Shown one piece after another: positions 30,394-53,824 of a stretch of DNA of 64,000 nt (position 1 is its first letter; the number at the start of each line of letters is the position of its first letter). The notes beneath the pieces are model-generated. The model worked only from the letters and a program-made list of their open reading frames with translations. It was not told where the DNA came from and did no database searches. The translations under genes were made by a program, and so were the position numbers. Source of the stretch: Polyangiales bacterium (lineage in GTDB: Bacteria; Myxococcota_A; Polyangia; Polyangiales; JADJQN01); assembly GCA_964202905.1 (NCBI GenBank), contig CAXNJO010000003.1, positions 96,001 to 160,000 of the forward strand. The letters run 5' to 3'.

Positions 30394-30431
30394 CGCGCCC
30401 CGACTGTTAGCCGTGTAACCTCGGCCTGTCG

Positions 30432-33400: not shown

Positions 33401-33515
33401 ACTCGGCGACGCCCGGCGGCTCGCCGGGGACACCGATGGCGCGCAGGCGGCCTGGGAAGAAGCGCTCGCGTACGAGCCCGACAACCGCGAAGCCGCGCGG
33501 CGCCTCGGACGCTGA
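30432..33515 (+). CDS. Myxobacterial multidomain membrane protein (two degenerate receiver-like domains, DUF4388-like region, TM helix, His-rich repeats, TPR)
   Basis: VMLVGD..APDLLVL and RVLIVHED..PEVVIVD receiver-like segments; one TM helix; TPR-like C-terminus AWEEALAYEPDNREA. Confidence 0.75.
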   Translation: MYDSRDPASPPHGAAPPNGASMASMSPERGRTPSAPPLADRSRSSYPPSAPSRERAPTEAPPPEPEGAAEDAPDGHSRPTQRPSRAPVVMLVGDGEPMAEAIAGALGTRGVRVRTASVEGAAGAVESRAPDLLVLIGDATHGDRLRLLSALGARPPRERLPVVLLEEHADDPLEQRLRALREGAVDVVERQASADAMAARIAELAWDVAHHTPRQAAGVELTLDALTGAIRNELAQRVPGDAEQLLAAPGREIAEAIQGFAERVRALVKRGDVERARPMLSTPRAEVRLDASLLADLDDGASEALRGARVLIVHEDPGEADALAQELRARGSTVVVSGATAPGLARARSLDPEVVIVDAKAAATGAEGLKARLARDPRLRWAHVIDARWDDIFASDSGIPRLEGLAERIAPLRAVERALASRALDEPRFEVDLAEMGPSRILRALANTPHPVRLTALEDLAEARVDVVDGLVVGAEADGMTGPEALASLLGLQSGMLRVERRRAPGQANLFVPVGDALVGAARATVPSPSSKPPAPATPEDARHRGAPLDAVEEPEELADGLAALLEPESSAPPAADPSTPPARPSSGIPAGTLLGLAPPATPAIGSDGEFEEVTVVDKSPLATARLVAALAAESMAPDALAEVRLAAAQLAEAERASQEGTSDSQSVHPFAATHLGLGPPSSPPPLTSPPPPDGDPAFDDGGARVSREIEEAEIEEAEIEEHWLAAEPQESALSDEPRRPTARARRLQSVMLGGAFLLSAAAIAATGIGMWRMLHPRVPGMPHGAHANHAAPAEHAAQTEHAAHAAPAEHAAQTEHAAQTEHAAQTEHAAQTEHAAQTEHAAQTEHAAPAEHAAPAAPTEHAAPAEHAAQTEHAAPAEHAEHVAPAEHAEPAMQAAAVAAPTDAPAEIASEDPTAASERLTALARTILTADPERAASILTRAAERAPTNAHPVEELARLHLRRGNASGAVFWASKLVTLRRRRASARVLLGDARRLAGDTDGAQAAWEEALAYEPDNREAARRLGR
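32799..33103 (+). repeat. In-frame 18-bp tandem repeats encoding HAAQTE/HAAPAE
   Basis: More than a dozen imperfect hexapeptide units after the TM helix. Confidence 0.9.
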
Positions 33516-37249: not shown

Positions 37250-38935
37250 TCAGCGGACCCAGACCGTCCACGCGAAGGGGTCGCTCGAGGCCGAGAGATT
37301 GCCGAGCATCCCGTGTCCGCGCACGGCCGCGCGCGGCCGATAGTTCTTGGAGAACGACCACGTGTAGAAGCTGCCTCCGGTCTGATCGAGGGTGAGCGTG
37401 TCGCAGAACGAGTCCGTGCAGGTGGTGTAGGGCCGGGGAGGATCTCCCGGCCGAGGCAGCGGGGGCGCAGACACCTCCGGATCATGCGAGATGTACCAGG
37501 CCGACGCGCTGCGATGGATCTGATAGGTGACACCCGCCTTCAGCCCGGTGACCGGCGTGACCGGAATCTCTCCGGTTGTGTAGACGAAGTTCACGTAGTC
37601 GACGAAGGTCGCCACCGTGCCGCGTCCGAAGGCCGTCTGCGTGTGCGTGGGAATCTGCGCGGTGCTGAGCGCGAAGCTGCGCCCCATCGTCAGCGTGGGG
37701 TCGTACGTGGGCAACGCACCCCGGTTCCAGTCCACCTCGGGCGCCGCCTCGAACTGCGCGACGATCAGCGTCCAGCCGCCGCCGTTCGAGGTCATGTCGC
37801 AGTACATGGGCCGCTCCGGCTGCGGGCCGGGGCCGTCGACGTCGACCGGGTAGAGCATGCTCGGCGGCACCGCGGGCGCCATGAACGAGTCGCGCCAGGC
37901 GAGACACGAGGTGGGGTATTCGCGGGCACAGGTCGCGTTGCAGCCATCATCGGCGATGGTGTTCCCGTCGTCGCACGTCTCGCCCGCGCCGAGGATCCCG
38001 TCACCGCAGCGCACCGCGCAGACGCCCGCGTCCCGGCAGCTCTGGCCGCTCGCACACGCCGTGACCGTCGTGCCGAGGCCATCCGCGTTGCAGACGCTGC
38101 GGCTGTTCATCTCGCACGTGGCGCTGCCCGGCATGCAGATCTGCGGCGCGCACAGGCCCGTCGTCGGGTCACAGCTCGAACCGGCGTCACACGGGGTCGT
38201 CGGGCCGAAGCCGAGGCCATCGGCGTTGCAGAGACGCGTCCCGCCCATGCCGTCGCAGCCCGGCGCGCCCGGCGTGCAGATCTGGTCCGTGCAGTTGCCG
38301 CTGCCCGTGCAGGTCTGGTCCGCCGAGCAGGAAATCAGGCTGGTGAAGGCGACGCAACTCTGCGCACACACCTCGCGGGCCGTGAGCGAGCCCGCGGCAC
38401 AACGGCGCGTGAGGCCAGGCGAGCAGATGCACGGAAGGCACACGCCGTCCTGACAGCCCTCGGTGAGGCCACAGGGCCGGGCATCGATGGTGGCGCCGCG
38501 CGCATCACACTCGCCGACCACGCGCTCCATGCCCGGAAGGCAGAAGCGGCTCGACGGCGCGCAGGCCTGCCGCGCGCAGGCGCCGTCGCTGCAGTAGAAG
38601 CCAGCCTCGCACGCCGTCGCGACGCGCATGCCGGAGGCATCGCAGTTGTACGTCGTGAAGTCGTCGAGACAGTCCGTCTCGCCCGGCGTGCAGGGGCCGC
38701 CCGCGTCGACATCACTGCCGGCATCCACACTGCTGCCGGCATCCACGTCGCCCGCATCGGTTCCGGTGGGCCCGCCATCGGTGCCGCCGCCATCGCTGCC
38801 CGACGGGCCGGAATCGGTGCCCGTCGGCCCCCCATCGACGCTGCCGAGATCGACGGACGCAGGCGCGTCATCGTCATCGCCGCAGGCCGCGAGCGCGACG
38901 ACGACCGCCGCAAGCCCCACGAACGATCCGCGCAT
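37250..38935 (-). CDS. Cys-rich stalk lipoprotein A with fibrinogen-like tip
   Basis: LAACGDD; CTPG..CNADGLG repeats; CAVRCGDGILGAGETCDDGN; PTSC..MYCDMTSNGGGWTLI. Confidence 0.85.
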   Translation of the reverse strand: MRGSFVGLAAVVVALAACGDDDDAPASVDLGSVDGGPTGTDSGPSGSDGGGTDGGPTGTDAGDVDAGSSVDAGSDVDAGGPCTPGETDCLDDFTTYNCDASGMRVATACEAGFYCSDGACARQACAPSSRFCLPGMERVVGECDARGATIDARPCGLTEGCQDGVCLPCICSPGLTRRCAAGSLTAREVCAQSCVAFTSLISCSADQTCTGSGNCTDQICTPGAPGCDGMGGTRLCNADGLGFGPTTPCDAGSSCDPTTGLCAPQICMPGSATCEMNSRSVCNADGLGTTVTACASGQSCRDAGVCAVRCGDGILGAGETCDDGNTIADDGCNATCAREYPTSCLAWRDSFMAPAVPPSMLYPVDVDGPGPQPERPMYCDMTSNGGGWTLIVAQFEAAPEVDWNRGALPTYDPTLTMGRSFALSTAQIPTHTQTAFGRGTVATFVDYVNFVYTTGEIPVTPVTGLKAGVTYQIHRSASAWYISHDPEVSAPPLPRPGDPPRPYTTCTDSFCDTLTLDQTGGSFYTWSFSKNYRPRAAVRGHGMLGNLSASSDPFAWTVWVR

Positions 38936-39082
38936 CCACCCGAATTCTGCCGACTTCCTTGGATTCACAGACACCTCTCCTCAGCGTCGCGCCACCACCT
39001 CGGCGCGTCCGAAGGCGCGAAGCATTCGGTGCACGACCCACCGATGCAAGCGACGAGACGGCGTCAAGTCATGCGCGCGAGA

Positions 39083-40684
39083 TCAGAGCCGCAACACCCG
39101 CACCGCGCGGCCGTTCGCCGTCGAATGTGCCTCTTCGCGCACGCGCTCCTCGAGCGGTGGCGCGTCGCTGCGCCGGTCGAAGAGCACGAGCACGCCCGCA
39201 TCGAGCCCGACCCGCGCGAGGTATTCGTCGAGCTGCACGAGCCCCTCGGCGAGCGGGTCTTTGCGCTTGTCGCGCCAGACCTTCATCTCGATCGCTTCGC
39301 GCTGGAGCTGCTGTTTGCCGGCGGCGTCGGAATACGGCCATTCGATCAGCAGATCGATGCGGCGGCGGCCGATGCCGTATTCGCGCGACACCACCCCACC
39401 GCCGTTTACGACGCGTTGCAGATAGGCCATCAGCACGAGCTGTGCGCCTGATTCCGCGTACGTCGCGCCCTCGGTCATCGACTCGCCCTGCTCGACCCAA
39501 AAGGCGGCGAACTCACGCAGCAAAACATCGATGTCGAAGCGCCCATCGGCGCGCACGAAGCGGCGCGGATCGGCGGTGACGCTCTGCTGCGCGGCGCTCG
39601 AGAGCACGCGCGCGACGACCTCCTGGTAGATGGGATTCGCCATGCGCAGCGGCCGGCTCTTCACGAGGCCGAGGTCGACGACGTAGGAGACGTCATCATC
39701 GAACACGTCGTCGACCGGCGCGATTTCGCCGGCGAGCAGCGGCCCGATCACGCGCCGCACGCGCGGCTCGGCGAGCTTGCTCGCGAGCGAGTCGAGGTGC
39801 GTCGCGCGGGCGAGGATCAAGCGCTCCTTCGCCGTCTCGACGTGGGCGCGCTCGATGGCGCCCGTCACGGCCATCTCGCTGACGACCTCGTTGGCGAGCG
39901 CGTTCACGAGCCACGGCTGGCCACCGGCGAGCTCGGAGAGACGCGTGAGCGCGTCGTCGGAGAAGACCTGCCCAGTCGCCGCGGTGTGCTGTTCCACGAG
40001 CGCACGCACCTCGGCCTCGCTGAACGTGCCGAGCGTGAGCGACTTGAGCTTCACGTTGAACGGGCTCGCGGTGCCGAGCCGATTCGCGTCGCCGCCGCTC
40101 GCCATCTTGTAGTCGCGCACATCGCGCAGGCCACACAGCATCACCGACCACGGCGCGCGCGCGGGGCGATCGGGGAAGCCCGCACGCAGCTGCCGCAGCA
40201 CCGCGATGAGGCTCTGGCCGCGCAGCGCGTCGATCTCGTCGAGAAGCAGCACCACGCGCCGCGGGCAGCGGGCGCACCACGCGGCCAGCACATCGGTGAG
40301 GAGCCGAGCCGAGGAAGGGTCCTCCGGCAACGCGTCGGGACGCAGTTCTTCCGGGAGTTGCGCGTCGGCTTCGGTGATGAGCTGGCGGACAAGCAGACGC
40401 TGCGCGACGAGGAAGTCGTCCCCCGCCGCCTCCGCCGCCTCGCAGCTCATGTAGAGCGCGGCGTAGTCCTCGCCCGCCGAGAGCGACTTCGCGAAGGCCC
40501 GCAGGAACGTCGTCTTCCCCGACTGCCGCGGCGCATGGAGGACGAAGTAGCCCCCCATCGCCACGATCCCCGGCGCCTCGGGCACGCGCGGGAGCGGCGG
40601 CACCATGTAGTGCTGATGCTCCTCGCACGGCCCCGTCGTGTTGAAGTACTTCGGAATCGGCGGATAGACGCGCTTCTCGACCAT
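39083..40684 (-). CDS. AAA ATPase (AAA_35-like) with C-terminal PD-(D/E)xK-like domain
   Basis: YFNTTGPC, Walker A APRQSGKTT, Walker B LLLDEID, SPFNVK, GGQPWLVN, REYGIGRRRIDL..EMKVW. Confidence 0.9.
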   Translation of the reverse strand: MVEKRVYPPIPKYFNTTGPCEEHQHYMVPPLPRVPEAPGIVAMGGYFVLHAPRQSGKTTFLRAFAKSLSAGEDYAALYMSCEAAEAAGDDFLVAQRLLVRQLITEADAQLPEELRPDALPEDPSSARLLTDVLAAWCARCPRRVVLLLDEIDALRGQSLIAVLRQLRAGFPDRPARAPWSVMLCGLRDVRDYKMASGGDANRLGTASPFNVKLKSLTLGTFSEAEVRALVEQHTAATGQVFSDDALTRLSELAGGQPWLVNALANEVVSEMAVTGAIERAHVETAKERLILARATHLDSLASKLAEPRVRRVIGPLLAGEIAPVDDVFDDDVSYVVDLGLVKSRPLRMANPIYQEVVARVLSSAAQQSVTADPRRFVRADGRFDIDVLLREFAAFWVEQGESMTEGATYAESGAQLVLMAYLQRVVNGGGVVSREYGIGRRRIDLLIEWPYSDAAGKQQLQREAIEMKVWRDKRKDPLAEGLVQLDEYLARVGLDAGVLVLFDRRSDAPPLEERVREEAHSTANGRAVRVLRL

Positions 40685-40727
40685 GACCGCGCGCAGCGTA
40701 TCACCGTGGGAGGCGGGGCGTGTTCGC

Positions 40728-40802
40728 TCAGAGCCGCAACACCCGCACCGCGCGGCCGTTCGCCGTCGAATGTGCCTCTTCGCGCACACGCTCCTCGAGC
40801 GG
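40728..40802. repeat. 75-bp copy of the AAA gene 3' end (39083-39157)
   Basis: One synonymous mismatch; includes the stop codon. Confidence 0.95.
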
Positions 40803-40974
40803 CGCGGTGCTGCCCATCGACCTCGAGACGACGAGCGTCGTCGTGCTCGCCTTCCCCCCGATGCTGATGCTCTGGAAGGCCGTGCAGGACGACGGTCAGG
40901 TGAGCTGGGTCGAGACGGCGGCCATGGTCTGCGTCTTCGGCATCGTCGTGTATCTACTCGCGGCGCATGGGTGA
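40803..40974 (+). pseudogene. C-terminal fragment of a membrane protein (Na+/Ca2+ exchanger-like)
   Basis: AVLPIDL..MLMLW..DDGQVSWVETAAMVCVFGIVVYLL*; starts abruptly at the repeat edge. Confidence 0.4.
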
Positions 40975-41044
40975 GTGGGTGGCGAGTGGATGGTCGCAGA
41001 CGGTCATGCTGCGTGCGTCGAATCAATCGTCGGAGTGCGAGTCG

Positions 41045-44000
41045 TCAGGGAATACAGCGAGATTCGAGAACTCTCAGGCCGGACCCATCGGAATACACGA
41101 TATCCGCATAGCCATCTGCGTTCACATCCACGATTTGGTTGATCGCACTGCCAGCGAACATTCCAATCAGTGAGAGAGACGGTGTTCCCGAAACATCGCG
41201 CGCGAGGTAGACGCGAACCTCCGTTCCCGTGGACAGGGCTACGTCGGTTCGGCCATCGCGATCGATGTCACCGACCGCCAGAGATTCGCCGTTCGTTGCT
41301 GGCGAGACCCGTCAGTCGATGCGCAGGAGACGTTGCAAGGGTGCCGAGTGAGTTGAGGTAGATGGCAATTCCTCGGGTGGATGTCCGAGAGAACGCAAAC
41401 ACGTCTTGATCGCCATCCCCATCAATGTCCCCAAAGCGACACTCTTGATCAACGCCGTCGGACGCCCAGACTTGCGACCCAACTCCCGCGCTCGACAGTT
41501 GGTAGATTCGGGTGGGTTCGGCACCGCCGCAGCCTCCGCTGCCGCAGGCATCGACGCCGCATGTAAGCAATTCAAGTCTGGCATCGGCATTCACGTTGGC
41601 GAAATCCGCGTTTCGTACCGGATGTGACACCGCCCAAACACTCGACGCAGCGATCGTGCCGCCTGACGCTAGGTACATGGAACTGCGTGTTGGTGTAGGA
41701 GGCATACCGCCTTGATTGATGATGAACACGTCAGCGTCACCATCGCGATCGAAATCCGCTGCCGCGATGCCGGTGTTCCAAGCCGTCCCTGTTTGCCAGG
41801 TGACAGCGGTACTTACCCCTGAGATGGTCTGTTCGTAGAACCGACTACGGCCGCTATATCCGGCAGATGGTCCATCGCAATCGGCGAAAAATACGCCCGG
41901 AAGCCCGTCTCCGTTGACATCGCCGAATGAGATACCGGTTGCGCAAGTGTACGCCGTAGGCTCCGACCAGAATTCCGTTAGCGTCGTTCCCGCGCGCCGA
42001 TAGAGTCGACGTCGTGAAGCCACCCCTGCCAAATCTAGGTCGCCATCTCCGTCGAGGTCGAAGAAGCGAGGGAGTCCAACCGCTGGAAGGGTGAGGCTCG
42101 TTGCAGCGAGCGTCACGCTCGCGCACCCCTCGCGCAGGCAGACACTCGAGCACCCATCCCCGTTCACCGATATTCCCGTCATCACATGTCTCGCCGCTGC
42201 CCAACGATGCCGTCACCGCAGCGGACGGCGCAGACACCGGTGTTGCAGCTCTGGCCGGTCGCGCAGGGGATGCGCGGAGAAGCCGAGTCCATCAGCGGTG
42301 CAGGCCTGGCGGGCGGTGAGGAGGCCCGGGGTGCAGAGCGCGGTTGCGGCGCTGCCGGGCGAGCACTCGCGCGGGGTGCAGGTGCCGGCGCCCGTGCAGG
42401 CGTAGCCGTCCGGGTCGCGGCGCCGGTGCAGGCGGCGGACGTGGCGCCGAGGCCGTCGGCGTTGCAGAGCGCGGCGGGTGTTGACGTGCCGTGACAGCGA
42501 GTAGGCGCCGGGCGTGCAGGCCCACGGCGCGCAGACGCCCGCGGTGCAGGTCGCGCGCGAGGCACCGCAGGCCGTCGTCGGTGCGGGCGAGTCCATCGAC
42601 GTTGCAGACGCGGCGGACTCCGTCGCTCAGCGCACGCTCGTGCTGCCGGGCGTGCAAATCCAGGCGCCGCAGAGGCCCGTCGCGGTGTTGCAGCTCATGC
42701 CGCTCGGGCAGGTGCTCGTGGCCGAATAGCTCAGTCCATCGGCGCTGCACGTGCGGCTACCCGTCGTGCCGACGCACATCGGCGTGCTGGGCGCGCAGAG
42801 GCGCGTCGTGCAGGTGCCCGTGCCCGTGCAGGTCTGCGTGTCGCTGCACGGCGCCGCGGTGTAGCCGAGCCCGTCGGCGTTGCAGACCTCGCGCCCGCTG
42901 AGCCCCGCGGTGGCCGCGCAGCGCGCGCTGCCGGGCGTGCAGATGCGCGGCAGACACGTGCCGCCGGAGCAGCTCTCACTGCCCGCGCACGCGACGGTGG
43001 AGTAGCCCTGCCCGTCAGCGTCGCAGACTGGTCGCGCCGTCGAACTCACACACGTCCCGTCGCCCGCGCCCGGAAGGCACGTTCGCGCGGTGCACGCGCC
43101 GGCGCCGAGACAGGCGTAGCCATTGGGTTCCGGGCCCGTGCAGGGAGCCGCGGAGGAGGCGAGCCCGTCTGCGTTGCAGACCTGGCGCGAGTTCACGTTC
43201 GAGCATGACGCGGTGCCGGGCGTGCACGCCCACGGCATGCACGCTCCCGCCGAACAGGTGCTGCTCTCGGCACATGCCATCTCGGAGTAGGTTCGACCAT
43301 CGGCGTTGCAGACGCGTCGCGTATTTGTTCCGGCGATGCACTCCGCTCTCGCCGGGGTGCACTCCCACTCGGCGCACATGCCTGTCGCGGAGTTGCAGCT
43401 CTGGCCGCTCCGGCACGCGGTGGTGCTCGTGTAGTTCAGGCCGTCAAACCGACAGGCGCGTGTGCCTGTTGAGCCAACACACTCGGGAGCGTCGGGGGTG
43501 CAGATGCGCGTCGAGCACACTCCCGAACGGCACGACTGCGTGTCAGGGCACGGTGACGGGGCGAAGCTTAGCCCGTCCGCGGCGCAGGTTTCGCGACCCG
43601 TGAGCGAACCGGGCACACAACGCGTGCTCCCCGGCGTGCAGACGCGCGGGAGACACGCGCCGCCCGAGCAGGTCTCGGTCGCGGCGCATACGGTCGTCAC
43701 GTACGACTGCCCGTCGGCGGAGCAGACCTGACGTGCACTGGGACTCGCGCACGTCGCCGCATTCGAGCCGGGGACACACATGCGCTCGGTGCACACGCCA
43801 TCGCCGAGGCAGACGTAGCCGTTCGGGGCGCTCCCGGTACACGGCGCGCTCGATGCAGAGAGTCCATCCGCATTACAACCCATGCGTGAGTTGATGTTGG
43901 TGCAGGTGTAGGTCCCCGGTGAGCACGCCTGAGGAATACAGCGGCCACCCGAGCATGAATCACCGTCGTCGCAGGGCGTATCGTTCCACTGCAGTCCATC

Positions 44001-44642
44001 CTCTGCGCAGACCTCACGCGCTCCGAGTCCGCCCGTCGTACAGCGGGTCTCGTTGGGAGTGCAGATTCGTGTTCGGCAGAGTCCCTCACTGCACGATTCT
44101 TCTGCGGCGCAGGCAGTCTGGATGAAGCGCTCGCCCCGCGCGTCGCATTCTGCGGTCGCGGTCGCCGTGGCGCATCGCACGGCGCCCGGAACGCAGAAGA
44201 GCGCGACGCACGCACCGTCTTCGCAAATCTCGTCCGCGCTACACGTAGTACTGCAGGCGCCGCAGTGGCGAGGATCACGAGATGTGTCGGCACAGCGCAG
44301 CTCACCACGGCTGCGACATACCGCGGTGCCGGGGGCGCAGCGCACGCCGCAGACGCCGGCGTTGCACGCCTGGCCCTCGGTGCATGCATTGCCACAAGCG
44401 CCGCAGTCTTGGGCGTCGCCGAGGACGTCGACGCAACGGGTGCCACACGCAGTGAGGCCCTCGGGACATGAGTCGTCTGCGTAGACGGCACGAATCGCTG
44501 GATCGCGCGTGGGGGGCGGAGGCGTGACCCAACCGGCGTCGCTCGTGAAGACGATGTCTTCCGGATCGCATCCCGCGAGCAAAGCGCCGAGGAGCACAAG
44601 CACATGAGCGCCGAACGTGGGTTTCCCGTGATGGCGTGTCAT
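41045..44642 (-). CDS. Cys-rich stalk lipoprotein B with FG-GAP/VCBS tip; several frameshifts (42160-42640, ~41290)
   Basis: LLAGC; many CTPG..CNADG repeats; CAVRCGDGIVG..CDDGN; DLDGDGDLD, DVNGDG, DFDRDGD, DIDGDGD, DIDRDG, DVNADG; ends ESRCIP*. Confidence 0.8.
42593..43016. repeat. ~420-bp near-identical block shared with 51845-52266
   Basis: Both copies encode ..GYSTVACAGSESCSGGTCLPRICTPGSARCAATAGLSGREVC..GAWICTPGSTS..DGVRRVCNVDG. Confidence 0.9.
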
Positions 44643-45835
44643 CGGTCACACCTCTCCTGGCAGCGGTCGAATTCGGGAAGACATCTGGTGACGATAGCGG
44701 CGGGGTCCGACACGGAGCATGCGTCGGCGACGGTCCTGCAACGCGCATGACAGGCGCGTGCGGCTTCGCGTGCCGCCGCAGTCGCACGCTCTGTCTGGAC
44801 TCGTCTTGCCTCCTCCCCAGCGCGTCGAGCCTCTTCTGCGCGCCGCGCTTCTTCCGCTGCGCGCTCCTCTGCGAGACGTCGGGCTTCCTCTGCACGTCGC
44901 GCTTCTTCGGCTGCGCGCTCCTCAGCCTCGCGCTGTACCTGTTCCGCACGGGCATTGTCGGCACGCTCGCGCTGGTAGTCGGTGAGGATGGTCGAATCGG
45001 GAATGGCAGCCACGAGCGCGTTGATCGAGCCGCGCCTATTTGGAGGACCTGCACGAAGGAAGGCGACGACGTCGGCGGCGAGACGCTCTCGTGTCGAGGC
45101 GGGCTGTGCGCCCAAGGCTGCGATGACGTCCTGTTCGGAGACGGCTCGGGGGAGCGCGTCGCGCTCCATGCGCAGCCAGGCGTCCCGGAGCGGATGCTCG
45201 GTCGTGTCCGGTAGTGCCCCGACGAGCGCGGCGTAGCGCGCGCGGATGCTCGCGAGAGGGGCGCCGTGGTTGCACCCCGCGAGCGCCTCGAGGAAGGCCG
45301 GGCGCCCCATGGCGGCGGGCGCTCGCTGGATGTGTGAGGTGACGGCGGGCGAGTCCACGCGGTCACAGAGCCAGGGGCCGAGGGTGGCGGCGTCGCCGCG
45401 CGTGAGGCGTGCGTCGTCCGCGCGCGTCGCGAGGACACGATCCGCGGGGAACTCCCGTGCGAGCCCAAGAATCTCGGAGACGGGCGTGGCCGGCGCGTTG
45501 GCGCGGGCTCGGAGCGCGCGGACCATGGCACCGAGCAATGGCTGCAGCGCGGGTGGAGGCGTGGCGACGAGCGGCCACGTCTCGCCTGTCTCGTCGTCCA
45601 CGTAGACCGCGGGGCGCCGATGGGCGTCGAGCGCGAGCGGGACGGCGGCGCGGCACGCGGAGAGGTCGCCGCCTTGGCAGGCCGTGGCAAGCGAGGCGAG
45701 GCGTTGTTCGGCAGATTCGTCGCCACGCGCCTGCTGTGATGGGGTGATCGCGAGGAGGAGCGCGAGGACCGCAATGAATGCGCTTGGTTTTTGCAACTGG
45801 GTTCTCTGTCGCGCGACGGAGTCTTCAAAGGACAT
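44639..45835 (-). CDS. Secreted hypothetical protein with AEEARR coiled coil and Cys-rich end
   Basis: Signal peptide; EEARRAEE repeats; ATGA overlap with the next gene. Confidence 0.7.
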   Translation of the reverse strand: MSFEDSVARQRTQLQKPSAFIAVLALLLAITPSQQARGDESAEQRLASLATACQGGDLSACRAAVPLALDAHRRPAVYVDDETGETWPLVATPPPALQPLLGAMVRALRARANAPATPVSEILGLAREFPADRVLATRADDARLTRGDAATLGPWLCDRVDSPAVTSHIQRAPAAMGRPAFLEALAGCNHGAPLASIRARYAALVGALPDTTEHPLRDAWLRMERDALPRAVSEQDVIAALGAQPASTRERLAADVVAFLRAGPPNRRGSINALVAAIPDSTILTDYQRERADNARAEQVQREAEERAAEEARRAEEARRLAEERAAEEARRAEEARRAGEEARRVQTERATAAAREAARACHARCRTVADACSVSDPAAIVTRCLPEFDRCQERCDR

Positions 45836-47623
45836 GACGCACTCCGATCTGGAGGCTCAGGATGGGCTGATAGCCATCGAGGAACTCCGTGCGGTACACG
45901 CGAATCCCTACCTGCTGTTCGAGGCGCCAGTGACCGCCGAGGCGCTCCGAGATCACGAGTGCGGCTTCGCCCGAGGGGATGAGGTAGGCGTCGAGTCGCT
46001 GCGCGACGCTGTCCGCGTCGATCGCGGCCTCCGTGCGCACCACGCTCGGTCCTCCGGAAAGCTGCAGCCCGAGGCCCATGATGCGACCGAGACGCAGGGT
46101 GAATCGCACCTGAGCTTCGACGCCCAGAAGGGTCGCTGCGCCCAACCCGGCGTCGCTTCCTGGCGTGTGGAAGACGGGTAGAGAGAGCCCGAACGACCAC
46201 GGGCCGTACGTCACACCGCCGTCGATGCGGGCTTGGAATCCGGCAAAACCGGGATCTTCAGCGGAGACGCCGATGCTCTGCAAACCCAACACATCACCCC
46301 CGAATGGGATTGCGTAGCCGCCTGCGATGCCGAGAAACCCGTGCCAGCGCGTGACCGTAATCGCGCGTTCGGCCCCCTCGGTGAGCGGCTGTGTCTCCGC
46401 CCACCGGGTCAGACTTGCGAGCGTCGCCGCGTCGATGGCAGCGGTGTCGGCGCTCGTCGCGATGCCGGACTCCGGAGCAGGAGGCCCAGCCGCGTCGACC
46501 GGGCCAGCCGGCCGCGGCATCGAGGGCGCGGCTCCGGTGTCGATCGCAAGGGCAGGCGCCGCTCCGGGGTCGGGCTGCGCAGCAGGGGAAGGGGTCGCGA
46601 CGGCGGCTGCGCGGAGTGAGACCTGGCGCCGGCTCGATCCGCGACGTGGCGGCCCGTCGCCGGGAGGCGCCGCCGTCGATGTCGTCGTGGACTCCCGACC
46701 TGGCGCGTACGAGGGAGGCGCCGGCGCGGGTGTCTGCGCAGACGGGATTGGAAGCGATGGCGGGTCCACGGGCTCCGTGGCGCGTCTGCTCGACGCCGGG
46801 GCGGGAGTTGGGGGCGCGGGCGGCGGCGCGGCGGCTCGCGCAGGCGCTGCTGCCGCCTCGGCCGGCGGGGACGGCGCGGTCGCAGTAACGGCGGAAGCGG
46901 GTGGAGGCGTCGGCGGAGCGGGCACCGCGATCGAGGGCGCGGGCGGCGGTGTGTCGGCGGGCGGCGTCGGCGCGGCGGCTGCGGCGCGCGGGCGGCGGTG
47001 TCGCGGCGGGCGGCGTCGATGCGAGTGTTGCGGTCGCGGTCGCGGGCGGCGGAGGCGCTCGAGGCGGTCGCGGACGCCGCGGCAGGCAGCATGGGCGCGG
47101 GAGGCGTCGGTGTCGGAGCCTGGGGCGCGCTGCGCGGCGTCGGCGCGGGAGGCGACGGTGTCAGCGCCTGAGGTGCGTTGCGTGGCGCCGTCGTGGGAGG
47201 CGTCGCGGCAGGGGCTGACGTCGCGGCTCGCGGTGTCGGCGCGGGAGGCGTCGATGCGGGGGCTGGCGTCGCGGCCCGCGGCGTCGGCACCGGTGCGGGC
47301 GCTGCGGGACCGTAGCCGTAGGAGGGAGTTGTCGCGCTGCCGGGAGCGGGGCCGTAGCCATTGGCGGGAGGGGTTGAACGGACCGGCGCGGGGGCCGGTG
47401 CCGTCGCGGGCCGTGCACCCTCCTCATCGCGTGCACGCTGGAGGTCGCGCTCCAACTGCGTGGCCCAGTCTACCGACTCGCGCGGCCGGCGTCGCGGCGA
47501 ACTCTGCGCCCTCGCTCCGTCGGCGAAGCTCGCTCCGAGGAGGATGAACATCAACGTCGCGACTGCGAGCGACCGCACGCGCGAACCGAGTCGCGCGGCG
47601 GGATACACCGTATCGTGGGGCAT
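45825..47623 (-). CDS. Secreted Pro/Ala-rich protein with C-terminal beta-barrel-like domain; frameshift(s) near 47000
   Basis: Signal ..FADGARA-Q in one frame and PAT-rich linker; the other frame has alternating beta-strand pattern ending LSLQIGVRHVL. Confidence 0.6.
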
Positions 47624-47669
47624 TGGGATCACCTTCCCGACAGGTCGCGCGTCGCGCGTACCGGGGGCT

Positions 47670-50282
47670 TCACTCGAGGGGAAGCGACACGAAACGCGAG
47701 AGCGACCAACTCGGGAGTTCCGGGATGGTCGTCGTCGCGGCCAGCGCCACCGCGCGGAGGATGGCGGGCGACGCGGGCGGCGTCGCGGCGGGCGCGGCCT
47801 CCGCGGCGCGCTCGTCACGGCGCCGACGGCGGCTGGAGGAACCCTCGTCCGCGTCGCTGCGCGCCGGAGCCGCCGAGGTCGGCGCATCGTCGCTGAGCGG
47901 CGCGTCGAGCGAGGCGGCGAGCGCGTTGCGAACGGCCGTGTCGTTCTCGAGGAAGGCCTCGGGATCGCTGGTGCGCACGTCGATGCCCGCGAGGATCTTC
48001 CAAGCGTTGTCGCCGAACGCCGACGCGAGCATGCTCCATTGCAGCAGACGCCGCGCGAGTGGGACGCGCGTTTCGATCTGCTCGACTGATGCCTCCGGCG
48101 TCGGCATCGCCATCGTGCGGAGGAGGCTCTCGCATTCGCTGTTCGCATCGCGCTCACCGAGCGCGTGGCAGAGGAGCATGAAGCGGCTCAGCGTGCCCGG
48201 GTCGACCCGCACGTTGGTGCGCGGCGCGCCGCACGCAGGCGCGTCGTCGCTGCCCGGACACGGAGCGGGGAACTGCGCGAGCAGTGCGCGACGCGTCGCG
48301 GGGTCGATGACGCGGCTCTGCTCGAGGACACGCACGGCCTCCGTGACGCGTGCGACCACCGCGGCGGGATCGGGCGAAGGGGGCCACGCGCTCCGCGCCA
48401 GCTTGCGTTCTTCCTCCCAGCGCGCGAGCAGCGCAGTCGCGGGTTGCAGTGCGCTTGCGGCGTCGCGAATCGCGTTCCAGGCCGCGCGTGTCGGCATTCC
48501 CTGTCGTTGTCCGAGCGCGGTCGCGGCAGCAAAGAAGGAGACCGGGGCGATGCGGCTCGCGATCTGCGCCAGGGTGATCGGGCTCGACACCGAGAGACCG
48601 ACATCGATCTTCGCGAAACGACGACCGGGGACACGCACGATCGCCAGCGGCGAACGGGTGTCGAGGGAGGCGCAGACCTCGCGTGATCCGACGCGACCGT
48701 CGAGGTCGTCGATGGTGACGAATACGCTGCTTACGGAACCGGGAACCGTGTACGGATTTCCCGAAGGAGCGCCCGTCGAGGCCGTGGTGACGAGTCCGCC
48801 GCTTTCGGAGCCTGGGTCCGTCGCGACGTCCGGGCTCGCCAGGCTTCCGAGATCGAAGATCGTCGCGTCGGGCGCATAGGCGAGGGCAACCCCGGTGATG
48901 GCCGGGGTGTACTCGACGGGTACCCGTATGCGCACCTGCATCTCGAATCGGTCGTCCGGCCCCAAGGCCGGGCTGTCGTCTCGCTCGCTCGCGCCGGCGA
49001 CGTCCTCGTCGGGTGCGGTGAAGCCGACCTCGACGATGCCCACGGCAAGCGGCTGGAACCGAAGTTCCATCGTCCCTTCGCTGCGGCCGCGGGAACTCAG
49101 CACGCGGAGCGCGAGCGGCTCGGGGCGAGGTCCGGCGCTGCTTGCCACATACAGAGGGCCGAGAGGAACTTCGAATGTCTCTCCGGCGGCCGCTTCAGGT
49201 ACGACGACTTCTTCGCGCCCGAACACGATGTTCGGTGCCGTGGTGTCCGCGAGGACGATGGATTGGCTGAGCAGCCGCTGTCCGCTCGTGTTTCTGCAGC
49301 GCAGGGTGAGTCCGAACACCTCACCCGCCTCGTGGATGCCGTTGTCGGCTCCAGGCCCACTCCGGTCGTACGTTCGAAGGAGGTTGGATTCGCAACTGAA
49401 CGGCGCACCACTGCTCGAGGCCTGGCCGAAGACGGGTGCGCCCGGGCGTAGCGCCGGAGCCCTGGCTGCCCGCGATGTGAGCGCGCCGCGCGCCGCTCCG
49501 ACGAGGTCGTTCCGCTTGGTCCAGTATCTGCCGGGCACATCCGCGGGCACGATCGGCGCCGTGAAGAGCGTGGTGAACTGGCTCCGCAGGAACGGGTCCT
49601 CGTTCACCATCGTGATCGCGGCCGTCACGAGCGCAGGGACATCGGCATCGGTGACGCAAACCTTCTGCGCGTAGGCCTCCGCGAGCGCCCACATCAGGCC
49701 GTCCTCCACGCGCGGGACCGATGGGTTCGCCGGGGCGAGCAGCGCCTCGCTCGCGTCGAAGAGCGCACGGATGGTCGGCTCGGACGCGGTCATCTCGCCT
49801 GCGCGGCGCGTGAGGAGCGGATGAAGCGGCAGCAGGAGTGACTGTGCGGCCCGCGCCCGGGCCCGGGCCGCGTTCACGGTCGTACCCGAGCTGCACAGGA
49901 CCTCCCGATCGCGCGATGTGCCGAGCTGAGCGAGCGTCCGTGACGTGACCTCGCGGAACACGGCCTGCAGGCTCGGGTTTGCCTCCGCGATCGGCCAGAG
50001 ACTTTCGACGTCGATCGAACTCGGTGCGGAGCCTTGCGGCATCGGCGCGGGCGCTGCGCCCCCCCAGCCTTGCGGCATCGGCGCGGGCGCTGCGCCCCCC
50101 GACGCCGGGTCGCCCGAGCGGGCGGTCCCCGTCGCCCAGCGCACGCCGTTGGTGGCACCCGTCGGCAACGAAACACTCGCGCCGCCGCACGCCGCGAGCA
50201 GCGTCAGCGCGGCGCCGACGCTGAATACATCTCTTCCGACCGCCCACCCACGCTTCCAACAATTCGCCGTCTCGGTGCGCAT
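47670..50282 (-). CDS. Large hypothetical lipoprotein with Ig-like segments
   Basis: LLAAC; duplicated GGAAPAPMPQG; DNGIHEAGEVFGLTLRCRN Ig-like motif. Confidence 0.7.
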   Translation of the reverse strand: MRTETANCWKRGWAVGRDVFSVGAALTLLAACGGASVSLPTGATNGVRWATGTARSGDPASGGAAPAPMPQGWGGAAPAPMPQGSAPSSIDVESLWPIAEANPSLQAVFREVTSRTLAQLGTSRDREVLCSSGTTVNAARARARAAQSLLLPLHPLLTRRAGEMTASEPTIRALFDASEALLAPANPSVPRVEDGLMWALAEAYAQKVCVTDADVPALVTAAITMVNEDPFLRSQFTTLFTAPIVPADVPGRYWTKRNDLVGAARGALTSRAARAPALRPGAPVFGQASSSGAPFSCESNLLRTYDRSGPGADNGIHEAGEVFGLTLRCRNTSGQRLLSQSIVLADTTAPNIVFGREEVVVPEAAAGETFEVPLGPLYVASSAGPRPEPLALRVLSSRGRSEGTMELRFQPLAVGIVEVGFTAPDEDVAGASERDDSPALGPDDRFEMQVRIRVPVEYTPAITGVALAYAPDATIFDLGSLASPDVATDPGSESGGLVTTASTGAPSGNPYTVPGSVSSVFVTIDDLDGRVGSREVCASLDTRSPLAIVRVPGRRFAKIDVGLSVSSPITLAQIASRIAPVSFFAAATALGQRQGMPTRAAWNAIRDAASALQPATALLARWEEERKLARSAWPPSPDPAAVVARVTEAVRVLEQSRVIDPATRRALLAQFPAPCPGSDDAPACGAPRTNVRVDPGTLSRFMLLCHALGERDANSECESLLRTMAMPTPEASVEQIETRVPLARRLLQWSMLASAFGDNAWKILAGIDVRTSDPEAFLENDTAVRNALAASLDAPLSDDAPTSAAPARSDADEGSSSRRRRRDERAAEAAPAATPPASPAILRAVALAATTTIPELPSWSLSRFVSLPLE

Positions 50283-50506
50283 CGTCTTTCACTCCGTCGT
50301 CGTGCGCCCCGGCGCGCGACGACGGCGAGGAGAGTGTGGGATCTTCCAGGATTGTGTCTACGGTTTTCGGGGTCGGGGTCCCGATGAGCGGGGGGCGGGT
50401 CTCGTCGGCGCGCGCGCTTCGGGACTTTTGGCCATCGCGAAGGATGTCGTGCTGCCCGACCGCTGCCGCGCCTCGTGACAGCCAGCCGGCTGGCCGTCTG
50501 GGCGCG

Positions 50507-50700
50507 TCAATCCCAGCGGAAGGCGATGCCGAGGTCGGCCATCGCGAGCATCGCCTCGGCGTTGCCGCGCGCGTCGTCGACGGGATGATGCGTGTGCGGT
50601 GTCTGGCGGAGCTTGCGGAAGGTCTGGCGTGGGTCCTTGACGAGTCCCTTGTAGAACGAGCCGAGGTTCGCGGATGACCAGCCGAAGGGGCATGCGCCCG
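50507..50700 (-). pseudogene. C-terminal fragment of 3'-5' exoribonuclease (Rv2179c/DUF5051-like)
   Basis: CPFGWSSANLGSFYKG..RKLRQTPHTHHPVDDARGNA; fused in frame to the AAA 5' stub. Confidence 0.55.
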
Positions 50701-50849
50701 TCGCCACGATCCCCGGCGCCTCGGGCACGCGCGGGAGCGGCGGCACCATGTAGTGCTGATGCTCCTCGCACGGCCCCGTCGTGTTGAAGTACTTCGGAAT
50801 CGGCGGATAGACGCGCTTCTCGACCATGACCGCGCGCAGCGTATCACCG
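50701..50849. repeat. 149-bp copy of the AAA gene 5' end and leader (40558-40706)
   Basis: Identical by eye; encodes MVEKRVYPPIPKYFNTTGPC..APGIVA. Confidence 0.95.
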
Positions 50850-50950
50850 CGGCGCGCGAGGGTGCCGAGGCGTCCTGCCTACGCGCAGGAACGCTCGGTG
50901 CGGCGAGTCAACGCTGGGAGTACAATGACAACTGGCGGGAACGACCAGAC

Positions 50951-53824
50951 CTAGAATCCAAAGACCTCGACCTCCGCAATGCTCAGCGCGTTGGTCCCAC
51001 GCAGGCGAACCCTGACATATCGACCTGTTGCGGAACTCACGAAAACGGACGGACGACCAGCGAGCTCCCATTTCCATAAGCAGATGCAGACCACATAACA
51101 CCGTCATTTGAGGTTAGGATATCGAACTTGCTAGCAGCGACAGACGGTCACTCACATCGTTCCGAGCCCAGACATCCACCTTTCCAATGAGACGACTCGA
51201 CCCCAGATCTACCTGCCACCACGGCTGGGGCTCACTGTTCGTCGCTGCAAGTGCGCATGCGCTCGTCGCCCCTGAACGCCGCCCGTGCAGACTGGCGTGT
51301 AAAATCCATCATTCCCGTAGGAGGCAAGAAAGTCTCGCGACCCGTTGTTGTACGTGCTGCTCTGTGTCGCAAGACGCCCGCGTGAAAGGAGAACAAGCGT
51401 TTCTGTTGTACACACCGCACTGCACCCATCGCCACTGACCGCATTCCCGTCGTCGCACGTCTCGCCGCTGCCCACGACGCCATCACCGCAGCGCACGGCG
51501 CAGATACCGGTGTTGCAGCTCTGGCCGGCTCGCGCACGCGTTCGCGGAGAAGCCGAGTCCGTCGGTGTTGCAGACCTGCCGGGCGGTCGTGCTCGCGCAG
51601 ACGGTGGCGGCGCTGCCGGGCGTGCAGAGTGCGCTCGGTGCAGGAGCCGGCGCCGGTGCAGGCGTAGCCGAACGTCGCGGCGCCTGTGCAGGCGGCGGCC
51701 GTGTAGCCGAGGCCGTCGGCGTTGCAGACGCGGCGCGTGTTCGTGTCGAGACACGAGAAGGCACCGGGCGTGCAGACCCACGGTGCGCAGATGCCCGCGG
51801 AGCAGGTGGTGGAGGCACCGCAGGCAGAGTCGGTGTAGCCGAGACCATCGACGTTGCAGACGCGGCGGACTCCGTCGCTCAGGCAGCTCGTGCTGCCGGG
51901 CGTGCAAATCCAGGCGCCGCAGAGGCCCGTCGCGGTGTTGCAGCTCATGCCGCTCGGGCAGGTGCTCGTGGCCGAATAGCTCAGTCCATCGGCGCTGCAC
52001 GTGCGGCTACCCGTCGTGCCGACGCACATCGGCGTGCTGGGCGCGCAGAGGCGCGTCGTGCAGGTGCCCGTGCCCGTGCAGGTCTGCGTGTCGCTGCACG
52101 GCGCCGCGGTGTAGCCGAGCCCGTCGGCGTTGCAGACCTCGCGCCCGCTGAGCCCCGCGGTGGCCGCGCAGCGCGCGCTGCCGGGCGTGCAGATGCGCGG
52201 CAGACACGTGCCGCCGGAGCAGCTCTCGCTGCCCGCGCACGCGACGGTGGAGTAGCCCTGCCCGTCGGCGTTGCAGACCTGCCGCGCGCTCGCGCTCGCG
52301 CAGACGGGGCCGTTGGTGCCGGGGATGCACACGCGCTCGGTGCAGGTGCCCGCGCCGAGGCAGGCGTAGCCGCTCGCGGCGGGGCCGGCGCAGGACGCGG
52401 TCGAGTAGCCGAGTCCATCGCTGTTGCAGCGACGACGCGTGTTCACGTCGGCGCAGGAGAACGTGTCCGGCGTGCACGTCCACGGCGCGCAGAGGCCCGC
52501 CGAGCACGTGGTCGAGGGGCCGCAGGCCGTCTCGGTGTAGCCGAGGCCGTCCATGTTGCAGACGCGGCGGGTGTTGGCGCCGGGCACGCAGCTCACCGTG
52601 CCGGGCGTGCAGACCCAGCCGCTGCACATGCCCGTGCCCGCGTCGCAGCTCGCGCCCGCGCCGCACGCCATCGTCGGCGCGTAGCCGAGGCCGTCGGCGT
52701 TGCAGATGCGCGAGCCCGACGTGCCGTCGCAGCCCGGCGCGCCCGGCGTGCAGATGCGCGCGAGGCAGCTCCCCGCGCTGCACGACTCGGTGCCGGCGCA
52801 CGGCATCGACACGTAGGCGAGGCCCTCGGCGTCGCAGACCTCACGCGCCGTCAGGCCGGCCGACGACGACGCAGCGGCCCGCGCCCGGCGTGCAGATGCG
52901 CGGCAGACACGCGCCGTCGCGGCACCCCTCCGTACCCGCGCACGGCATCGCCTCGAAGCCCGCCCCCCGCGCGTCGCACACCTCGCGCGCGCCCATCGCC
53001 GAGCAGCGCGTCGCCCCGGGCGTGCACACCTGCGGCATGCACACGCCGACGCCGCAGTACTCGCCCGTCGCGCACGGCGTCTCCGTGCGCACGGTGCCCG
53101 TCGCGTCGCAGGAGAAGGCCGTGAAATCGCTCGTACACCCGAGCTCGCCGGCCGTGCACATCACCGCTGCGCACACCGCGGACATGCCATTCACGACGCA
53201 GCGTGCATCCGCCGCGCACGACTCCATCGCTTCCATCGTGCCGTCGGCGTTGCAGCGCAGGACGGTGCGGTTGTCGGCGCTGCACGCCTCTTCGCCCGCG
53301 TCGCAGACGATCGGGTCGATCGGCACGCACTCGAAGCGCATGCACTCGAAGCCACCGCTGCAATCGCGCGTCGTCTCGCACTCGCGCGCGGCGCACACTC
53401 CCGTGTCCATGCGGCAGAACTCGTCGGCGTCGCAGGCCGAATCTTCGCGGCAATAGAAGGTGCAGGCGTTGGCGCTGCACTGCTCGTTGCGGCCGCAGTC
53501 GGCGTCGGCGCTGCATTGCACGCAGTAGTCGAGCGTCGCGTCGCAGACGCCGAGCGGCGATTCGCAGTCGCCGTTGCTCGCGCAGGTCGTGCGGCAGAAG
53601 CCGTCGCGACACACCTCGCCGCCGCCGCAGTCGCGGTTGCTGGTGCAAGCGGTCAACGAAATCCCCGCGTCGCGGCCCGCGTCGACGGCGCCCGCGTCGG
53701 GCGTCATCGCGGGCGCATCGTCACCGCACGCGGTGACGAGCGCGAGGAAGGCAGCAATTACCCCCCCCCCACAAATCGCGAAATTACAACGTTTTTCGGC
53801 ATCTTGCGCATCTCGGACTCCCAT
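50951..53824 (-). CDS. Cys-rich stalk lipoprotein C with fucolectin/discoidin (F5/8 type C)-like tip; several frameshifts
   Basis: LVTACGDD; CTPG..CNADGLG repeats; CAVRCGDGVVGSGETCDDGN; LSRGRLATQSST, PWWQVDLG, GRYVRVRL..LSIAEVEVFGF*. Confidence 0.8.

Follow-up and report, generated by a model that had tools for sequence, protein, structure and literature searches.

The MAT fibres of Bdellovibrio bacteriovorus, a surface protein family of this predator, combine a conserved fibre with exchanged C-terminal tips, as seen for Bd2133 and Bd1334, whose fibres are 75% identical and whose tips are unrelated, one of the tips binding prey glycans (PMC10769870). In the myxobacteria, the surface protein TraA carries a polymorphic lectin-like domain on Cys-rich repeats proposed to form a stalk (PMC3325183), and recombination among its alleles has been suggested (PMC6372800, PMC3325183). 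A third precedent is offered by polymorphic toxins such as MafB, CdiA and Rhs, which keep a conserved N-terminus while their variable C-terminus is replaced by recombination (PMC4287609). Here we analyse a stretch of 64,000 nucleotides (the window) from the genome of a Polyangiales bacterium, in which three lipoprotein genes, A, B and C, join Cys-rich stalks to unrelated C-terminal tips. The window spans positions 96001-160000 of contig C3 of this genome (G000; 5.68 Mb in 19 contigs, 73% GC, 94% complete). Near-identical stalks of the family carry unrelated tips, which were probably swapped by homologous recombination within or just after a DUF4215 repeat and are predicted to be surface binding domains; the genomic evidence for exchange is strong, and the mechanism proposed below is plausible.

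Like the MAT fibres, the family of G000 keeps its scaffold and exchanges its tips. Unlike these trimeric, beta-helical and phage-fibre-related proteins, it consists of lipoproteins with a stalk of disulfide-rich repeats and a defined joint repeat, and its swaps are much more recent (89-98% stalk identity) and come with a break in GC content at third codon positions (GC3). The loose parallel with TraA drawn in an initial annotation of the window holds for the Cys-rich stalk and the variable lectin-like domain of a myxobacterial surface protein and for the suggested recombination, but not beyond: TraA varies within a single fold, in a PA14-like domain at its N-terminus, carries TIGR04201 repeats and a MYXO-CTERM anchor at its C-terminus and has a partner in TraB, whereas the family is anchored through an N-terminal lipobox and shows a different repeat, several paralogs and the exchange of whole unrelated C-terminal folds. 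No PA14 or MYXO-CTERM hit was obtained in the family and TIGR04201 reached 16.2 bits, below its cut-off of 25, and orthology with TraA was rejected. The same annotation had invoked polymorphic toxins, with which the family shares a conserved N-terminus and interchangeable C-termini; its tips, however, are binding folds and not toxins, and no immunity gene lies directly downstream of any of its five members, A to E, where a methyltransferase gene (convergent) follows A and an ATPase gene or remnant follows the others. Since neither orphan cassettes, nor immunity genes, nor a nearby recombinase were found, and the crossovers are staggered, a polymorphic-toxin locus was rejected. A search of the open literature, with subscription papers and supplements outside it, found no description of the family, which is apparently an undescribed variant of the tip-exchanging adhesin families.

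Three lipoproteins with a common stalk end

Genes A, B and C are all encoded on the minus strand and share the same order of parts: a lipobox, an Asp/Ala/Gly linker, Cys-rich repeats, a joint motif and a tip. Gene A (37250..38935; lipobox LAAC at 38882-38893) encodes an intact 561-aa lipoprotein with a short stalk, a joint repeat at 37928..38008 and a fibrinogen-like tip, for which the GGGWT_bact family (E=6e-10) matches the first ~50 aa only. Gene B (41045..44642; lipobox LAGC at 44568-44579) starts with a STIG1-like head followed by a long mosaic stalk, a joint repeat (42138..42220) and an FG-GAP tip (41048..42137; E=7e-21). Gene C (50951..~53824, its start being uncertain; lipobox VTAC at 53726-53737) has a long stalk, a joint repeat at 51410..51490 and an F5/8 type C tip of the discoidin/F-type fold (50954..51409; E=1e-6). 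Both B and C are frameshifted in the assembly. The three stalks end in the motif G(V/I)CAVR-CGDG..G.GETCDDGN...DGC...C, which corresponds to a known repeat, matched by Pfam DUF4215 in A (E=2.7e-7, 31.2 bits) and C (E=4.6e-8, 33.7 bits), above the 27-bit cut-off of its hidden Markov model, and by TIGR02232 in A (40.6 bits, cut-off 20.8 bits), as well as above cut-off in the paralog D and in a homologous contig, L045 (see below). The copy of B is broken by indels and was recognised by eye. DUF4215/TIGR02232 (PF13948, Myxococcus cysteine-rich repeat) usually occurs in tandem, whereas in this family it stands as a single copy at the boundary between stalk and tip.

Altogether, lipoboxes, DUF4215/TIGR02232 and tip families confirm the proposal of the initial annotation that three same-strand lipoproteins with a common stalk-end motif bear unrelated tips. 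As genes, A proved intact, while B and C are not intact reading frames, each being split by several single-base frameshifts. The labels fibrinogen-like (for the first ~50 aa of the A tip), FG-GAP and discoidin-like stand, and that of fucolectin for C does not, since the His of the fucose motif is absent.

Near-identical stalks bearing unrelated tips

A genome scan revealed two further members, D (C1:14411 to 12030), with a LamG-like tip by similarity to homologue P0005, and E (C3:226123 to 223642), with a fibrinogen-like tip, making five in total. The stalk DNAs of D and E are 98-100% identical per 100 bp across ~1.6 kb up to the joint. The last exact common block, 51 bp long, lies inside DUF4215; beyond it divergence is complete and the tips are unrelated. 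Both genes lie on large contigs and their flanks differ on both sides. Moreover, C resembles D and E at 82-98% over its first 0.7 kb, B is ~90% like D immediately before the joint, and a 342-bp tract of B (42636..42977, minus strand) is identical to 51886-52227 in C, either through gene conversion or as a polishing artefact. The stalks of the family are mosaics.

Equivalent combinations were found in other assemblies. Two JGI metagenome contigs, L045 and L046, which agree with each other, join a fibrinogen-like tip to the C stalk (90% nucleotide identity over 1848 bp); identity between C and L045 stays at 84-96% per 100 bp until the joint and then falls to 33-52%. The D/E-type stalk, at 89-97% amino acid identity, carries three more tips elsewhere (P0008/P0220, P0219 and the F5/8-type P0223); within the 7-member P0008 cluster, the tips on it are 87% and 63% like that of P0008, besides the F5/8-type one. 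As P0219 and P0220 have differing signal-peptide regions on this stalk, the 5′ end of D/E-type genes also appears to be exchanged. Six pairs combine 84-97% identity before the joint with zero tip similarity: D/E, D/P0008, P0001/P0002 (90%), P0027/P0029 (96%), P0014/P0016 (92%) and P0035 with the copy of G001, a genome of the same genus (84%). Conversely, a single metagenome-assembled genome has two LamG tips that are related to each other and stand behind the same joint, but on stalks that are not (L068, L069). The occurrence of several different tips on stalks 89-98% identical indicates that tip change has been recent and repeated.

These homologues come from a set of 82 proteins, of which 65 with stalk coverage were retained and 17 matching by DUF4215 alone were removed; DUF4215 sits at the stalk end in 27 of the 65, the record of A itself not being counted. 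A search of representative sequences returned mostly proteins with tandem DUF4215, and 36 new rows with their best match over the stalk were inspected. The stalk was detected in 7 of 61 genomes, and the stalk-joint-tip pattern had 0 matches in viral contigs. For a stalk tree of 30 rows with 8 tip labels we used the 145 residues that precede the joint, leaving aside B and C, with their frameshifts, and the distant rows with LamG and C-type-lectin tips (P0022, P0025, P0076). On this tree the tip labels change 19 times, compared with a mean of 18.7 when shuffled, and are thus unclustered. Approximately unbiased (AU) tests rejected four homologous LamG tips and four homologous fibrinogen-like tips as clades (p 1.6e-55 and 5e-59), for groups defined by tip BLAST but picked once the tree was known, and with long branches present. 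In this way, the tabulation of tips across relatives and the comparison of stalk and tip phylogenies support the exchange at the conserved motif that the initial annotation had suggested, within the genome and across assemblies; gene A, with its apparently fixed tip, falls outside it.

A drop in GC3 at the joint

The GC content at synonymous third positions (GC3s) changes from stalk to tip in most members: from 0.78 to 0.59 in B, from 0.88-0.95 to 0.565 in C, from 0.93 to 0.57-0.59 in D, from 0.91-0.94 to 0.70 in E, from 0.92 to 0.615 in L045 and from 0.90 to 0.76 in G001. Values of 0.87 and 0.89 were obtained for A, and of 0.685 and 0.70 for genome G023. Fourfold sites agree with this pattern, which confirms that the tips of B and C are more AT-rich than their stalks, as initially noticed. 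As a control, a GC3s drop of at least 0.15 in the last 200 codons occurs in 1 of 810 in-frame genes, after prior removal of 632 of 1442 with Arg-rich, out-of-frame windows; the unfiltered figure is 32 of 1442. B, C, D and E show the fall within their joint or just past it, and the 3′ half of DUF4215 is already low in D, E, L045 and G001 (0.57-0.67 vs 0.77-1.0 in the 5′ half, with 11-16 codons each). Among 15 other open reading frames (ORFs) of the genome with DUF4215, 13 in-frame ones never fall below a GC3s of 0.78 after the repeat and 2 have out-of-frame tails.

Neither fixed stalk-tip pairs nor an unbroken composition was thus found, gene A apart, in this lineage. Six GTDB loci with the same joint, one of them from G023, show no GC3 break, from which low-GC tips are restricted to this lineage. 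G023 (L072 / L035) belongs to another family, with a genome GC of 0.61, and has the same stalk and joint with a LamG tip. Low-GC lineages like this one could be the source of the low-GC tips. No high-identity silent tip copies were detected in the 94% complete genome with 16 tip queries, which matched only distant genes elsewhere.

The joint and a plausible mechanism of exchange

The end of the shared sequence is staggered: D and E part at the DGC codons, B and D a few bases further on, and in D/E-type alleles variation starts directly after CDDG. Such breakpoints suggest homologous crossover in the last shared block and not at a fixed site, and DUF4215 would be a homology boundary with staggered crossovers. 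The recombination joint initially proposed can be kept in this sense, but not as a dedicated site. Nor is the motif peculiar to the family, since 15 other ORFs of the genome contain it.

In the mechanism we propose, RecA-type recombination with a paralog or with DNA from a related cell would use the stalk plus DUF4215 as its upstream arm, and a multicopy ATPase gene located just downstream could serve in this lineage as the second arm, which would make the tip behave as a cassette. ComEC is present in the genome, which permits DNA uptake but does not show it. A second, nested joint probably exists in the ‘fibrinogen-like’ tips, which contain a ~50-aa module ending in GGGWT (YCD..GGGWT; 37769..37927, minus strand, in A) conserved at 38-100%. 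The variable distal domains behind it form three groups (A, E and L045 types), none of which gives a BLAST hit to another; crossovers in this module would swap the distal part only. At the level of the population, a repertoire of adhesins or receptors would result, whose most likely ligands are glycans of prey cells or particles. The complete version of this model, where each tip is a cassette between a DUF4215 and an ATPase arm, the GGGWT joint and a poly-G switch add further variation, no dedicated recombinase takes part and a predator population sets whole lectin folds of a common gene pool on a standard stalk, as a combinatorial prey-recognition repertoire, seems rather unlikely to hold in all its parts; if it did, DUF4215 and GGGWT_bact would be general exchange joints.

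The poly-G element refers to a run of ten G in the signal-peptide region of C (53761-53770, minus strand) and another of eleven in E (G000:C3:226102), interrupted in D (G000:C1 ~14390), which are 2 of the 7 runs of at least ten in the whole genome. In none of C, D and E does the upstream ATG, which has a GGGAG ribosome site, share the frame of the gene, whereas a TTG does so in D and E. Phase variation through a slippage switch is a possible meaning of the poly-G of C and E, as are a homopolymer error or another start.

ATPase copies and neighbouring genes

The ATPase gene of the window (39083..40705, minus strand; 533 aa, start at 40684) is an AAA-ATPase preceded by a conserved ~25-bp leader. 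The genome contains eight full or near-full mosaic copies, 82-94% identical, which elsewhere occupy C1:6980-11917, C3:221847, C5:336301 and C12:24946-28305, with tandem arrays of three and two, and the short leader conserved in front of each copy includes a promoter-like element. We take its C-terminus to resemble a PD-(D/E)XK nuclease, without a Pfam hit, and the gene may be a self-spreading one. The start of an ATPase gene or remnant lies 124-361 bp beyond each of B, C, D and E, which accounts for four of the six ATPase sites; the other two come after other lipoproteins, and in L045/L046 the ATPase is found one gene further downstream. No homogenised 5′ arm of the ATPase became apparent: columns 100-200 are 99% identical, yet other blocks also reach 95-97%. 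As a required part of the system the ATPase was rejected, its link with the family not being general among genomes.

A ~10-kb block holding B (40793-50690) looks inserted into an ATPase gene. At one edge, a 3′-terminal remnant of a further ATPase copy (40728..40813, minus strand) is joined through a 7-bp microhomology to a 94% copy of the end of a gene of contig C15 (40793..40989, plus strand). At the other, an exonuclease-like C15 gene is represented by a 97% copy of its 3′ end (50474..50690, minus strand), which is fused to a truncated 5′ ATPase copy (50697..50852, minus strand), 98.7% identical to other copies and starting 124 bp past the C stop. Both edges are thus copies of genes flanking a C15 lipoprotein, joined via short microhomologies; we presume these flanking genes to be exonuclease-like and antiporter-like. 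The B block looks like a different allele for the C15 slot that was acquired from another strain. Between C and B lie three single-copy ORFs outside the stalk-tip family and without Pfam or other family hits (44639..50288, minus strand), whose products have 870 aa (lipoprotein-like), ~413 aa (Pro-rich and exported) and 398 aa (with a Cys-rich tail at the end).

Other neighbours deserve mention. In G001, a toxin-antitoxin cluster (ParE and an addiction-module antitoxin; L034:261-1110) follows the stalk-tip gene in place of the ATPase. A lipoprotein of ~500 aa with HEAVH (HExxH), without a Pfam hit, precedes the ATPase in L045:210-1739 and at G000:C5:338117-339477. Elsewhere in the window, 30411-33515 encodes a large protein labelled by eye as response-regulator-like, with about ten tandem EHAAQT repeats and a TPR-like end.

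Predicted structure and function of stalk and tips

The model of the L045 stalk with its joint is confident (predicted local distance difference test, pLDDT, of 94 from 61 sequences) and consists of repeating short disulfide-rich beta units instead of the beta-helix/beta-prism architecture of the MAT fibres. A Foldseek comparison with the PDB gave no match at E<=0.001. By analogy with the proposed TraA stalk, the modelled chain would work as an extended spacer. For the joint plus tip of A the AlphaFold model is of low confidence (pLDDT 39), and the matches of A to fibrinogen-family structures cover ~30-45 residues at E>=0.015. Only the first ~50 aa of this tip match the family, against ~220 aa of a full fibrinogen-related domain.

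Tips in the family comprise F5/8, FG-GAP, LamG, fibrinogen-like, C-type lectin, FGE-sulfatase, RCC1 and Kelch domains, together with some lacking a family hit, and all those named are predicted to be non-catalytic binding folds. A fucose lectin was considered for tip C, given the motif HX24RXDX4(R/K) described for F-type lectins (PMC5712786), and discarded: the His is absent in C and the full motif in all six homologous tips, one of which, P0015, retains its H and RxD. With C devoid of the fucose motif and A matching fibrinogen only in part, no tip ligand can be named. The lipobox, the disulfides and the type of tips point to surface exposure, and judging from these folds we somewhat favour a role in binding glycans of prey or particles, the proteins being variable adhesins or receptors.

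Alternative explanations

Several observations weigh against recent exchange at the joint in its general form. Gene A shows no GC3 break and keeps its tip in all seven junction-spanning members of its cluster, with 83-99% tip identity, although this cluster was built at 90%, which would shut out an A stalk with another tip and favours the fixed-tip result; A appears to be an older member with a fixed tip. A distant clade with LamG and C-type-lectin tips also retains its tip (44% tip identity), the difference between P0016 and P0019/L067 resembles the loss or gain of an internal module and not a crossover swap, and the GC3 break is missing from the six GTDB loci. Many relatives that lack DUF4215 likewise differ in their tips (RCC1, Kelch, FG-GAP, LamG or unnamed), so the repeat is not needed for tip variety. 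Nor is the downstream arm general: the ATPase was detected in 3 of 41 genomes, G001 (80% complete) not among them, it accompanies the family in 0 of 6 GTDB loci, three of which have <520 bp downstream, and none of the eight ATPase loci in G018/G034, where it is multicopy and scattered, follows a stalk-tip gene within 1.5 kb. Moreover, frameshifts are denser in the tips of C and D than in the genome as a whole, and some tips may be dead through true decay. The comparators are mostly metagenome assemblies, in which mis-joins at repeats are possible, and binding, like the recognition of prey, kin or surfaces, would be a function predicted from fold identity.

Some of these points would fit long-term domain shuffling, in which DUF4215 is simply the last module and rare illegitimate fusions, insertions and deletions act with no special joint or turnover. 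The repeat is indeed common (18-53 matches in each of three related genomes, besides the 15 other ORFs of G000), and the varied tips on stalks lacking it, the unbroken GC3 of the GTDB loci and the internal module of P0016/P0019 go in the same direction. We nevertheless regard this explanation as unlikely, since slow shuffling does not account for several different tips on stalks 89-98% identical, for tip labels as scattered as shuffled ones, or for the 13 other in-frame DUF4215 ORFs, none of which drops below a GC3s of 0.78 after the repeat.

A second possibility accepts the exchange and assigns it another function, either kin or self recognition, homotypic as in TraA, or defence, with the tips as decoys for phages or grazers. 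It draws on the polymorphic lectin-like domain and recombining alleles described for TraA (PMC6372800, PMC3325183) and on mobile, conflict-type neighbours, namely the ATPase copies here and, behind the gene of G001, those for ParE and an addiction module. The tips, however, are unrelated folds instead of allelic versions of a single one, the same genome has five paralogs that differ in their tips, the TraA domains gave no hit above cut-off as stated before, and no PADLOC hit was found among the neighbours scanned, all of which makes a kin or defence role distinctly unlikely.

An assembly artefact, with false stalk-tip pairs arising where repeats were collapsed or wrongly polished or where the shared repeat led to chimeric joins, has to be considered in view of the many indels of this assembly. 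A scan for frameshifts called 35 of them in G000, over 188,520 confident coding bases, and 4 in loci from other genomes, over 90,180, two motifs that we take to be from rpoC sit in different frames, and E has a break at a place where D, its 99%-identical twin, has none; for these reasons the frameshifts of B and C are probably, for the most part, assembly errors. Freshwater and lake metagenomes match the DNA of G000 (6 of 22 listed runs share 0.21-0.43 of words), and contigs of 4 of the 22 were compared with A, B and C. Among the matches listed, they cover parts of the three genes, including the tips of B (839 nt, 1 gap) and C (8 gaps), no single one spanning a whole gene; of the 99%-identical ones, whose gap positions are shown in part, that over the 52867 region of C has one gap and another over the B tip also one. 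No RNA data set appears among the listed matching runs for the C region. The metagenomic nature of the comparators and the stalk end of B, which looks like a mixture of C and D types, would also suit an artefact. Against it, D and E lie on large contigs with different flanks, independent assemblies (JGI, ENA, NCBI and Logan) yield further pairs, L045 and L046 agree, and a chimera could only permute tips already standing behind near-identical joints, which is the claimed pattern itself; as a general explanation, an artefact is highly improbable.

Exchange driven by a dedicated enzyme, be it a site-specific recombinase, an integron, a diversity-generating retroelement or the neighbouring ATPase, is just as improbable despite the tight linkage of B to E with the ATPase gene, the nuclease-like look of the C-terminus that it encodes and the microhomology joins inside its copies in the window, since the three tyrosine recombinases (PF00589) and two reverse transcriptases (PF00078) detected lie on other contigs (C11, C6, C8, C4) and none nearby, serine recombinases being outside the search, breakpoints are staggered, whole folds are replaced and not hypermutated, and tip variety also occurs in genomes where the ATPase was not found. 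Shufflons, integrons and diversity-generating retroelements were rejected on the same grounds, and no extra joint plus tip modules were seen near the five loci. Homologous recombination in or just after DUF4215 thus stays as the probable source of the unrelated tips on near-identical stalks.

Implications

DUF4215 is called a domain of unknown function in a study of diatom adhesives (bioRxiv 10.1101/2023.03.06.531300), and the present family suggests a role for this widespread repeat. Tip exchange of the kind known from Bdellovibrio fibres and toxin loci would have arisen here on a different scaffold, very recently and with joints that can be mapped. To our knowledge, how myxobacteria recognise prey and surfaces is poorly understood. 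In this regard, the family offers candidate recognition proteins, with one stalk and many tips, each of them a compact domain.

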